From Saccostrea cucullata (taxonomy: Eukaryota), in contig NW_026937682.1 in the NCBI RefSeq assembly GCF_032062105.1, positions 1-64,000 of the forward strand: a stretch of 64,000 bases of DNA. The letters run 5' to 3'. Position numbers and translations under genes: made by a program. The first letter of the stretch is position 1, and each line of letters starts with the position of its first letter. Shown in pieces: positions 5,644 to 17,754 of the stretch. The notes under the pieces were generated by a model. That model saw only the letters and a list, made by a program, of their open reading frames with translations. It had not been told where the DNA came from and made no database searches.

Positions 5644-6780
5644 AGATCTCAGATATAAATCGTCGTTGAAATTAGGCTCAAAACAACGAGTACTCATGGT
5701 CTTTCCGTTGATACTGACATCTAATTTCTTGATCCCAAAGTTTTGGAAATGAAAGGGATTTTTAGTTTGATCTCCGTTAAAGGCGGCATTCTCCACAAAG
5801 CCTAAAATGAGACGTTTAGGCATCTGGCCTTGAAACAGATGATCCGTAATCTTAGACTGAGTTCCTGTGGGGATGGTAAAGGTTTTCACTTCCACTCTTC
5901 TCAAGGGATATTTGGCTCTGTGGGTATGCAAACTCTGATTAATGGCATTTATCATGACTGCTGTGGGTTTGACTTTTCTCACCCACAAGACCATACTCAA
6001 AATTTTCACTTTTCCTGTACTTCCTCCTTTGATCATCATGTAGAAAGCAGGTCTAGCTCGATTAAATCGCAAACGGACGTCCACTCCATTAGGTAGAAAT
6101 CGATCTTGTTGAAACAAATCCAGATGTAAACGATCCAGCAAACTGATTTTCTTACTGTCAGCAATAGCTTGGTGTCTTTTTCGGAATCCTTCGTTTTTAG
6201 AATTGACTGGTAACGCTGTGAGGATGGGTTCGTCAATGGTCACCGTGTCTTTACTTGAACCTTTAGTTACATCAAAGGTCTTATTTTGAGCTACACCAAG
6301 GTCCTCTAACCCCACTTCGTCCATGTGTCCTGCCGTATCTTTTTCCCACAGACTACAGGCCCTCGCCTGTGTCTTTAATGTTCTGGGTCGGTAAGACAAT
6401 AATTTCTCCAGATAAGCTTTGTAAGGATAAGTATCCGTGCCCGGGGTCACTATTTTTCCATTCAGACTGACATCGATTTCCGTAAACATGGAATGTAAGA
6501 TGTTATTCACTGGACTCGAAGTGCTGTTCGCCCCAGTCAGATTACTTCCATCATCTTTTGTAAATTTACATACCATTTGAACATAAGTTTGAGAGAAATC
6601 CAGATAGTGATCTCCTTGTCCTTTAATTTCAAATTCGATGGGAGCGGTGTCGGAATCTAAAGTACTGGAAATAGGGTAATATTCTTCCCATTTCGAGTCT
6701 TCTAAAGCAATATTAGTCGGAGGGACTTCAAACAATTGTAAATTGTTCATCCCACACGCACAGGAATCGGGTTGTAACAT
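5644..6780 (-). pseudogene. Double jelly-roll major capsid protein (Polinton PY), C-terminally truncated
   Basis: Motifs LFEVPPT, PIEFEIKGQGDHYLD, YPYKAYLEKLL, KDTAGHMD, LPNGVD, AKYPLRRV, GQMPKRLILGFVENAAFNG..NPFHF. Capsid-like sequence ends at DDLYLRS (~5644); the ORF-track tail to 5515 is read-through into flanking DNA. Confidence 0.88.
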
Positions 6781-6809
6781 GATGTGTCTACTAGGATTCA
6801 GTTTTCACA

Positions 6810-6845
6810 AATGAACCTTCTGTTCACTGGACTGGCCTATTTATA
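6810..6845 (-). promoter_or_regulatory. TATAAA-N25-TCATT core promoter of the major capsid gene
   Basis: TATAAATA starting at 6845; Inr-like TCATT with its A at 6812; ATG at 6780. Confidence 0.7.
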
Positions 6846-6858
6846 CTCTCTCTCTCTC

Positions 6859-7371
6859 TCAGTCAAACACATCTAAATGACGTTTTCTTTTAGGAATTCC
6901 TCCTCCTTGTGTTTTCCTTTTTCTCTTAGGACCTCCTCGGGCTAACATAGGGGTCTTTTTTCTTCTTTTGTTAGTACCTCCTAGATTCATTCTTTGTTTC
7001 ACCATTCCCGAAGTATTTTTTAGAGCTTGTACTCTGTGAGTTTTGACTGCGTCTTTTAAAGATCTCTTATTTTCTAATACGTCTAATCCCGTTCTGGCAG
7101 CAGCAGTCAAGGCGTGTTTAGCTCCGGTTTTCAGTAAATCAGTAAAGAATCCTTCCCCTCTTTGATAGTTTTGGGGTGGATAATAGCCTGGTGGTGGTGG
7201 TGGTGGGGCTTGCTGTTGACCCAATAATCCTCCTACTAGATTGCTGACTAAAGGAGCTGCTACTTTAAATAGGGATCCTAAAAAACCGTGTCCTTTTTGA
7301 CGTAATAACCCTTTATGATAGACAAACTGTCCGTGTCCTCTTTGTCTCAGTAATCCTGGATGATACTGCAT
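6859..7371 (-). CDS. Basic virion core-like protein with QxGxG repeats and amphipathic helices
   Basis: RQRGHG, RQKGHG, YQRGEG and TQGGG motifs; helices GFLGSLFKVAAPLVSNLVGGLL and GFFTDLLKTGAKHAL; K/R-rich C-terminus ending DVFD; lies between the minor and major capsid genes. Confidence 0.75.
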   Translation of the reverse strand: MQYHPGLLRQRGHGQFVYHKGLLRQKGHGFLGSLFKVAAPLVSNLVGGLLGQQQAPPPPPPGYYPPQNYQRGEGFFTDLLKTGAKHALTAAARTGLDVLENKRSLKDAVKTHRVQALKNTSGMVKQRMNLGGTNKRRKKTPMLARGGPKRKRKTQGGGIPKRKRHLDVFD

Positions 7372-7390
7372 GGTTCATGTCTCTTGTTCA

Positions 7391-16500: not shown

Positions 16501-17174
16501 TGGTCTAAGTATTGATCTCCTTTCCGCATACGTGACAATCGTTTTTCCCATTCTGGGTCTGGATGTTCGGGTTTCTGACTGTGTAATCGAGTGACGACGA
16601 TGGCTCTAGCCAAACAAAATTCATCACGGGGATTGACGATCCGAACGATTGCTCGTTTATTTTTCTTGAAAGTTTCTTTATCCAGTTGTAGATGTTTGGT
16701 TCTGTCTCCACCACTCCCCTGGGGATTCCCGATGTGTAACAGATCGAATTCCGTGGAGCCGTCGCCGATTTTGTACTCCTTTTTGGATTGTTGCACACGC
16801 TGTATTTCTTTAAAAATGACGTCTTCGTTTAATTCTTTACATTGCATAAACTCGTAAGAGATTGTCTGAATCCAAAGATGGGTGACTTATGTTCAGGCGA
16901 AGGTAATCGTTAGGATCACACTCCATTTTCGATTTGAAGTCTTGTAACATGTTTTTGAATAACTGCCGAAGGAAAGCTGTGTTTTCTTCTTCTTCTGGAA
17001 ATTCATCGAAATGAACGACATATCTATTTTCATGCGCTTTAAATTTTGGAGAGGTCCTTTTTTCAGCTAGTCTCATGTGATAATACTCCGAAATGGGTTT
17101 AGGTGGTCTCTCTCGGTACTTTTTCGTTTCAATATTCGTCGAGCCTGTACCTGTTTTTCTCTAGTAGAATCCAT
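13549..17174 (-). pseudogene. Protein-primed family B DNA polymerase polyprotein (terminal-protein region with OTU-like motifs, Cys/His-rich region, exonuclease, polymerase); disrupted
   Basis: ExoI YFDFEC, ExoII AHNFKGYDG, ExoIII YCTSDVDIL, YGGRT, motif A YVDVCSLYP, motif B KLFLNCLWGKF, motif C YFDTDS; OTU-like DEFCLARAIV...HCDAI. Lesions: frameshifts near 17152 and 16863, in-frame TAA 16296-16298, deletion/frameshift near 14918. Start codon tentative. Confidence 0.92.
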
Positions 17175-17280
17175 GCCTATCAGGTGATGGCTCTGAGGGT
17201 AAAATGAATCCAAAGGCGGAGAAAACCGTATTTCTTTACAGTGGATGACGTCACAATACACAGGTAAGCATATATTTTTT

Positions 17281-17402
17281 TTTGCACACGGCCCTAAACA
17301 AACTTGAATCGCTGCCAAGTATTTACCTGTATAGTCAGCATATTTTTTGCACACGGTCCCCTGACTTGAATCGCTGCCAAATTTACCTGTATAGTCAGCA
17401 TA
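17281..17402. repeat. Two ~60-bp direct repeats upstream of polB
   Basis: TTTGCACACGG...ACTTGAATCGCTGCCAA..TTTACCTGTATAGTCAGCATA at ~17281-17342 and ~17346-17402. Confidence 0.85.
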
Positions 17403-17559
17403 ACAAAACGTAGTACCAACGTACCAATGTAAAAAAACACAATGTAAACACGCCCCTGTATTTAGGGGACTATATGTAACTGAATTGACCCCCACCTATC
17501 CCCCACCCCCAAGGATTGTACTGAGTTTGACCCCGTCTATCCCCCAGGGGATGCATTCA

Positions 17560-17754
17560 GTTGACCCGGTCATCCAGCCTGCTTCCGGCTAGGACATTTC
17601 TGGCTAGCCCACTTCCGCTTCCGCTAGGGCCCACTTCCGCTTCCACTTCGGGAACCCACTTCCGCCTACCCCGACTTCCGCTTCCGGCTAGCCCACTTCC
17701 GTCCACTTCCGGTTATGACGTCACTTCCGCCCTATCTGGACCCTTTATACTACT
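17560..17754 (-). repeat. Surviving Maverick terminal region (presumed TIR / origin) with clustered CGGAAG repeats
   Basis: About ten CTTCCG copies in 17582-17729, TGACGTCA at 17716-17723, terminal ACTACT at 17749-17754. The partner TIR is absent, so TIR length is unknown. Confidence 0.75.

Follow-up and report, generated by a model that had tools for sequence, protein, structure and literature searches.

The systems closest to the locus described here are the Eupolintoviridae, formerly the Adintoviridae, of the order Amphintovirales (renamed in 2025; PMC12451622), the vertebrate Mavericks (PMC8097293) and the mollusc Polintons with pPolB2 polymerases (PMC10748475); these and all other publications cited below are represented by the accessible part of each. 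Mavericks have been reported in all mollusc genomes analysed in PMC10294476, and (AGT)2 is a published Maverick end motif (PMC8097293). A VSR nuclease insert has been reported in some mollusc pPolB2 Polinton polymerases (PMC10748475), and the terminal-protein and OTU domains of the polymerase are treated in PMC11161782. According to known Polinton biology, the intact parent of an element of this kind would replicate as linear DNA through its protein-primed polymerase, starting from inverted repeats tipped with AGTAGT. It would integrate by means of its RVE integrase, creating a 6-bp duplication, and its ATPase would pack the DNA into a capsid built of major capsid protein and penton. An adenain-like protease would then mature the capsid by cutting predicted glycine-rich sites in the basic core proteins.

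We analysed the whole stretch of DNA presented above, a window of 64,000 nucleotides, in which positions 5644-17754 belong to the Polinton/Maverick group as a decayed copy with the gene content of elements that work in this way. The left limit is the position at which capsid similarity stops (5644) and the right limit is the end of ACTACT on the forward strand (17754); GC content is 41.5% between these limits and 32.3% in the remainder of the window. The element contains 11 densely packed genes on the minus strand, in the order pPolB, ATPase, a core gene split into frames of 173 and 120 aa, 154-aa gene, 276-aa gene, integrase, 90-aa gene, 155-aa gene, penton, 170-aa gene and major capsid. The original prediction had described eleven co-oriented genes, seven of them still open, with lesions in the polymerase, the integrase, one core gene and a truncated capsid. 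Our recount returned the same eleven. The ATPase, the penton and the 154-, 276-, 90-, 155- and 170-aa genes are open (7 of 11), and the stops, frameshifts, deletion and cut that break the other four (pPolB, integrase, split core gene and major capsid) were all located. Pfam names the polymerase (in two pieces), the A32-type ATPase and the RVE integrase. The predicted Maverick/Polinton identity is borne out by domain matches, gene order and capsid folds, the locus having the protein-primed PolB, RVE integrase, A32/FtsK ATPase, double jelly-roll capsid and single jelly-roll penton by which a decayed Polinton is recognized. Intact Mavericks, as defined in the accessible part of PMC8097293, have every core frame open (the protease among them), two terminal inverted repeats and a 6-bp target site duplication; here four genes are broken, and the window contains neither a protease nor a second terminal repeat. 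Because polymerase, integrase and capsid are broken, the present copy is incapable of acting alone. We consider it very probable that the locus is a dead, left-truncated Maverick/Polinton copy that likely integrated into the germ line of a rock oyster (Saccostrea) and then decayed.

The polymerase (13549-17180, minus strand) matches PF03175 twice (E 5.5e-33 and 2.3e-16) and has its catalytic motifs. Mapped against open homologues of 1311-1345 aa, it has a frameshift near 16863 and a stop at 16298-16296 and lacks about 84 codons (~250 bases) near 14915; the start region near 17160-17180 seems to be frameshifted too. At the site deleted here, oyster homologues have an 84-residue insert with nuclease-like motifs, and Pfam gave no VSR family match in the 16 polymerase homologues scanned. 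The strong PF03175 match is consistent with the wording used for Alpha adintovirus in the accessible part of PMC8502044; core-protein motifs for placement in the Alpha or Beta genus were not found in the examined part of its supplement. The neighbouring A32/FtsK-type packaging ATPase (12739-13449, minus strand; Pox_A32 E 3e-6) is open and has Walker A and B motifs.

The RVE integrase (9454-10557, minus strand; rve E 7e-11) is broken by three in-frame stops past the catalytic core, at 9792, 9771 and 9513. It is 50.5% identical over 362 residues to an open 369-aa homologue in relative locus L083, and integrases of relatives contain a chromodomain. The basic core gene at 11781-12700 (minus strand), which is related to the 154-aa gene, consists of a 173-aa frame and a 120-aa frame with a C2H2-like end. 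The two frames are likely one broken gene because the homologues in L041 and L083 are single frames of 276-283 aa and the break falls in a tandem duplication, which is 20 nt long. The 120-aa frame does not align to the tail of the L041 homologue and has no match among the ORFs of relative loci. The open 154-aa protein (11381-11845, minus strand; 17 matches among the ORFs of 81 loci), a conserved basic core protein putatively of the PM/GasderminX type, has in its C-terminal part a glycine-rich putative cleavage motif followed by a hydrophobic tail. The open 170-aa basic core protein (6859-7371, minus strand), in the PW position, is presumably cupiennin/pX-like and also has glycine-rich motifs; we assume that such motifs in the basic core proteins are putative protease cleavage sites. 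The conserved 276-aa protein (10554-11384, minus strand; 10 matches among the ORFs of 81 loci) is open and occupies the same position as PZ of vertebrate Mavericks, as given in the accessible part of PMC8097293. TATA-like boxes stand immediately upstream of several element genes (6845, 7426, 8538-8558, 9194, 11777 and 12747), which suggests that these genes may have separate promoters. A hydrophobic, cysteine-rich minus-strand frame of 26 codons lies between the penton and the 170-aa gene (7431-7511) and was not counted as a gene.

The major capsid protein (5644-6780, minus strand; F54H12.2-like) is cut after 379 codons, and its frame continues into unrelated flank to 5515. Its closest relative is a 473-aa Saccostrea echinata 'F54H12.2-like' protein (P0001; 88% identity), and the match stops at residue 381. 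In a structural model built with 51 homologues (pLDDT 74), the first jelly roll is well formed and the second half is unfolded. Foldseek placed the Sputnik capsid first (E 2.6e-7), followed by those of mavirus, iridovirus and vaccinia (D13), with TM-scores that are modest (0.3-0.4) because only half of the fold remains, as expected. The open 325-aa minor capsid protein, or penton (7513-8490, minus strand), gave only a weak match by sequence profile alone (E 0.056). Its model (pLDDT 83) matched the mavirus penton (E 1.3e-10) and also the Sputnik penton and the adenovirus penton base. It had been laid down beforehand that both capsid candidates should model as jelly rolls; both do, with Foldseek matches to virophage capsids and pentons, and the identification therefore withstood this test. 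The present analysis thus identifies oyster 'F54H12.2-like' gene models as Polinton capsids. In a tree of 26 capsid sequences (the window capsid, two environmental sequences and 23 homologues out of at least 120 listed), the window capsid falls in a five-member clade of Saccostrea sequences only, with support of 100/99. The host is therefore likely a rock oyster, in agreement with the bivalve-like genome predicted earlier. A search of viral contigs with the capsid alignment found one locus; the capsid sequence alone had no match there.

We looked for other copies in public sequencing runs. Element sequence is partly present in 20 of the 24 runs listed; none contains half of it, and the best DNA run contains 44% of its words. 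Contigs of four runs were compared, namely X1 (DNA), X6 (labelled RNA), X13 (marine metagenome) and X23 (polyA), with summed contig depth kept out of copy-number estimates. In X1, 7,633 contigs fit the element. Many copies that are 92-98% alike are present in the public runs; for the longest X13 pieces, the difference from the window is 2.5-7.6% in core genes and 11% in the 155-aa gene. No contig in the four runs compared spans the whole element, and no intact copy was seen among them. An X13 contig of another copy continues beyond the capsid break at 5645, other copies in X1 and X6 have extra DNA at 14915, and every contig placed at the polymerase stop at 16297 reads otherwise. Since other copies read through these positions, the breaks at 5645, 14915 and 16297 are private to the present copy; this reading covers those three sites, the integrase stops being absent from the listed contig rows.

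The RNA runs do not demonstrate expression of the element. Coverage in X6 is flat from gene to gene (about 80-150 per main contig) and extends to the host flank repeat. The 413 element reads in X23, out of 12.8 million records, come from both strands, and they cover most of the element less deeply than the flanking host repeat. We therefore rejected expression as shown by these data, and the signal looks like DNA carry-over or background. Expression of comparable genes has already been reported in corals, according to the accessible part of 10.1101/2023.10.06.561300. X13 covers the element genes about 10-fold and has no right flank, but the terminus is missing from it too and it contains the left host-type repeat. 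Because of these last two features, free virus and host DNA are indistinguishable in this run, and free virus in seawater is unsupported; virions are not evident from any of these data.

The surviving terminus (17555-17754, minus strand) combines the AGTAGT end motif with GC-rich CCACTTCCG repeats and is likely part of the single remaining terminal inverted repeat. The AGTAGT end at 17754 and the flanking AATAAA at 17755-17760 (plus strand) are both present as originally described. The hexamer is common (the 64-kb window has it 23 times, counting either strand) and so says little alone. It sits on a step in GC content (58.5% in the 200 bases inside against 34% outside), 7 of the 13 ACTTCCG words in the window fall within about 150 bases of the terminus, and AGTAGT ends likewise bound the complete relatives L091 and L093. 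Other copies share the terminal repeats to about 17714, varying within 17600-17714. None of the loose ends listed among the contigs of the four runs marks a boundary at 17754, and the terminal 23-mer has no exact match in the metagenome contigs. AATAAA is a candidate target duplication, for which no partner was found near the left break (5400-5700, either strand). Further into the right flank, 17927-18271 is a host repeat that is deep in X1, X6 and X23 and has loose ends on both sides.

To the left of 5644 there are 128 unrelated bases and then an inverted-repeat element (2764-5516). No capsid end, no protease remnant and no inverted partner of 17181-17760 were found in the 64-kb window. We gathered 81 relative loci with the capsid alignment. 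A protease-like frame directly follows the capsid in 27 of the 36 relatives with at least 1 kb of DNA beyond the capsid match; Peptidase_C5 matched 8 of 10 such frames tested and failed to match 2. Gene order was counted in the 18 loci having ATPase, integrase, penton and capsid, of which 14 have the same co-oriented order as here, and the order is repeated in all eight further loci from two genome bins. One of these eight, L091, is complete: it measures 15,818 bases and has 159-base terminal repeats, AGTAGT ends, a perfect 6-bp duplication and a protease match that ends 143 bases from the terminal repeat. L093 has both ends and no target duplication, and no terminal repeats were detected in L090 or L092. 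The prediction that the protease and the second terminal repeat went missing together with the left arm is thus well supported, because relatives share the order and the protease after the capsid, and L091 is complete. By analogy with these relatives, the lost portion (capsid end, protease and second repeat) would amount to about 1 kb or more, and it was likely deleted beside the nest of DNA transposons, although that mechanism is conjectural. Against this reading, none of the loose ends listed for other copies falls at 17754, the complete relatives come from other hosts and are only about 23-45% alike, L093 has no duplication, and with no more than 5.6 kb of the window on the left side of the break, the missing arm may lie beyond it.

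Several records among the relatives deserve separate mention. Two bacterial genome bins (G001 and G002, containing L082-L093) have 2 and 10 Polinton ATPase matches, and one polymerase homologue (P0207) is filed under a bacterial symbiont; Polinton genes in such records are likely eukaryotic contamination. In one co-linear relative, a gene with a PC4-like domain lies downstream of the protease (L002:12452-13474).

The absence of a left arm could also mean that the element is split and not truncated, with the arm displaced beyond the start of the window by insertions or a rearrangement, or the join at 5644 misassembled. In favour of this, the window offers only 5.6 kb on that side of the break, and much of it is nested transposons. 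However, a simple insertion would have left a capsid-end or protease remnant beyond the left edge of the nested element (2764), and the window has none there; moreover, the neighbour's repeat does not adjoin the break but lies 128 unrelated bases away. We regard a split as improbable. That this is a young, near-intact copy whose lesions are assembly errors is more doubtful still: the locus has four in-frame stops, a ~250-base deletion and a truncation, and the differences of 2.5-7.6% between its core genes and the longest X13 pieces are above base-calling error. Seven genes are nevertheless open, and with only 44% of words in the best DNA run, the source reads may be unseen.

The open penton, ATPase and several core genes, together with the element sequence in RNA runs, could alternatively indicate that the host retains virion-module genes because they serve it in some way. 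We give such domestication the slimmest chance. Random decay would be expected to hit the longest genes, and these are the ones with lesions; the capsid is cut; and there are few polyA reads (413 of 12.8 million), which come from both strands and are deeper on the flanking host repeat. A dead copy that has lost its left arm remains our preferred reading.

The rest of the window is rich in other repeats. The inverted-repeat element to the left (2764-5516), which lies outside the Maverick, contains a pogo/Tigger-type transposon (2983-5276) that has subterminal repeats of 17 nt and inverted ends flanked by TA. Its transposase (BrkDBD, HTH_Tnp_Tc5 and DDE_1) occupies two overlapping frames with a likely intron near 4395-4562. 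At 33697-38080, CACTAC ends, inverted arms of about 350 bases with subterminal repeats and a 3-bp TAT duplication delimit an element in which no transposase was found, likely a non-autonomous CACTA element. Broken minus-strand reverse-transcriptase frames at 26510-31818, with RVT_1 in three pieces, are likely LINE remnants. Further inverted-repeat elements and minisatellites lie at 41768-43145, 38193-53501, 50662-51346, 52536-52921 and 20463-21533.

Within the Maverick, two open genes separate integrase and penton. The 90-aa gene (9212-9484, minus strand) encodes a predicted two-helix membrane protein, is present in 23 of 35 loci with the integrase upstream of the penton, and has Atlas matches to unnamed viral proteins. 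The 155-aa gene (8655-9122, minus strand) belongs to no known family: Pfam found nothing for the protein or its relatives (n = 14), and Atlas gave no usable match. It has an internal two-fold repeat whose score was reached in 0 of 2,000 shuffles. The gene was found in none of 89 Polinton loci of distant relatives, and its family has no match in viral contigs. In other copies, the joints 8739>9224 and 8740>9202 skip the 155-aa region, and one contig continues unlike the window beyond 8543; the slot between integrase and penton therefore differs between copies. The interval from the small membrane gene to the penton is a variable cargo position. Related copies likely swap extra genes in this one slot, from the 90-aa gene to the penton, with a cell-death blocker possibly among them.

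This last possibility comes from four S. cucullata gene models (P0124, P0245, P0251 and P0260; XP_062592029.1, XP_062568791.1, XP_062605171.1 and XP_062605191.1) that join a BIR (IAP) domain to parts of the 155-aa protein. Three of the four are named BIRC7-like, and the models lie on at least three contigs. The junctions between the BIR and 155-aa parts differ among them, which suggests that the models join frames lying next to each other and that the fusion is not real; from the gene models, we read this as a BIR gene that adjoins the 155-aa gene in other copies. The window contains no BIR remnant. BIR matches occur in 3 of the 81 capsid-bearing loci, two of them confirmed by Pfam; in these environmental loci they lie at L075:5233-5871, L078:653-1126 and L064:2280-2612. 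IAP homologues are listed as adintovirus accessory genes in the accessible part of PMC8502044, and IAP labels stand beside bivalve maps in the figure text of its supplement. Our literature search, with subscription papers outside it, found no link between Polintons and the bivalve IAP expansion, and the words polinton, maverick and adintovirus are absent from the accessible part of a 2026 IAP survey (PMC13159474).

A bolder reading, which we hold tentatively and think unlikely on balance, is that rock oysters host a young, high-copy, mobile, particle-forming polintovirus family that swaps cargo, including a BIR-only IAP beside the 155-aa gene. If so, some annotated oyster 'BIRC7-like' genes would be viral cargo feeding the known bivalve IAP expansion, and a virus-like element would be the carrier of part of the dispersed IAP copies counted as oyster immune genes. 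Natural Polinton particles would also be easy to look for in such a high-copy family, since the host is farmed.

In comparison with known systems, the locus shares with the Eupolintoviridae, as described in the accessible part of PMC8502044, a pPolB, an RVE integrase, an FtsK-type ATPase and hexon-like and penton-like capsid proteins, but one end and the protease are missing and core genes are broken. The examined part of the supplement to that work has no Saccostrea, Crassostrea or Ostrea entries. With the vertebrate Mavericks, as far as the accessible part of PMC8097293 describes them, it shares the order within each module (pol-atp-pm-pz and int-mcp-pw-Mcp-pro) and, at its candidate terminus, the (AGT)2 end motif; the 6-bp duplication is a feature of theirs, and most of their copies are decayed. 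Their two modules lie on opposite strands, whereas here, and in 14 of 18 environmental relatives, all genes point the same way, and a small membrane gene and the cargo slot here follow the integrase. Mollusc pPolB2 Polintons have a VSR insert (PMC10748475, accessible part), and the oyster homologues have an insert with nuclease-like motifs at the place deleted in the present copy. L091 and L093, which are about 15.8 kb long and have a protease just inside the left repeat, resemble the present element in gene order and the AGTAGT end motif, but share only about 23-45% protein identity with it, have a long unrelated polymerase-ATPase stretch and have no 155-aa gene. Most Maverick copies in animals are decayed like the present one, which is ordinary apart from its swappable cargo slot and thus one more fossil of a widespread element.
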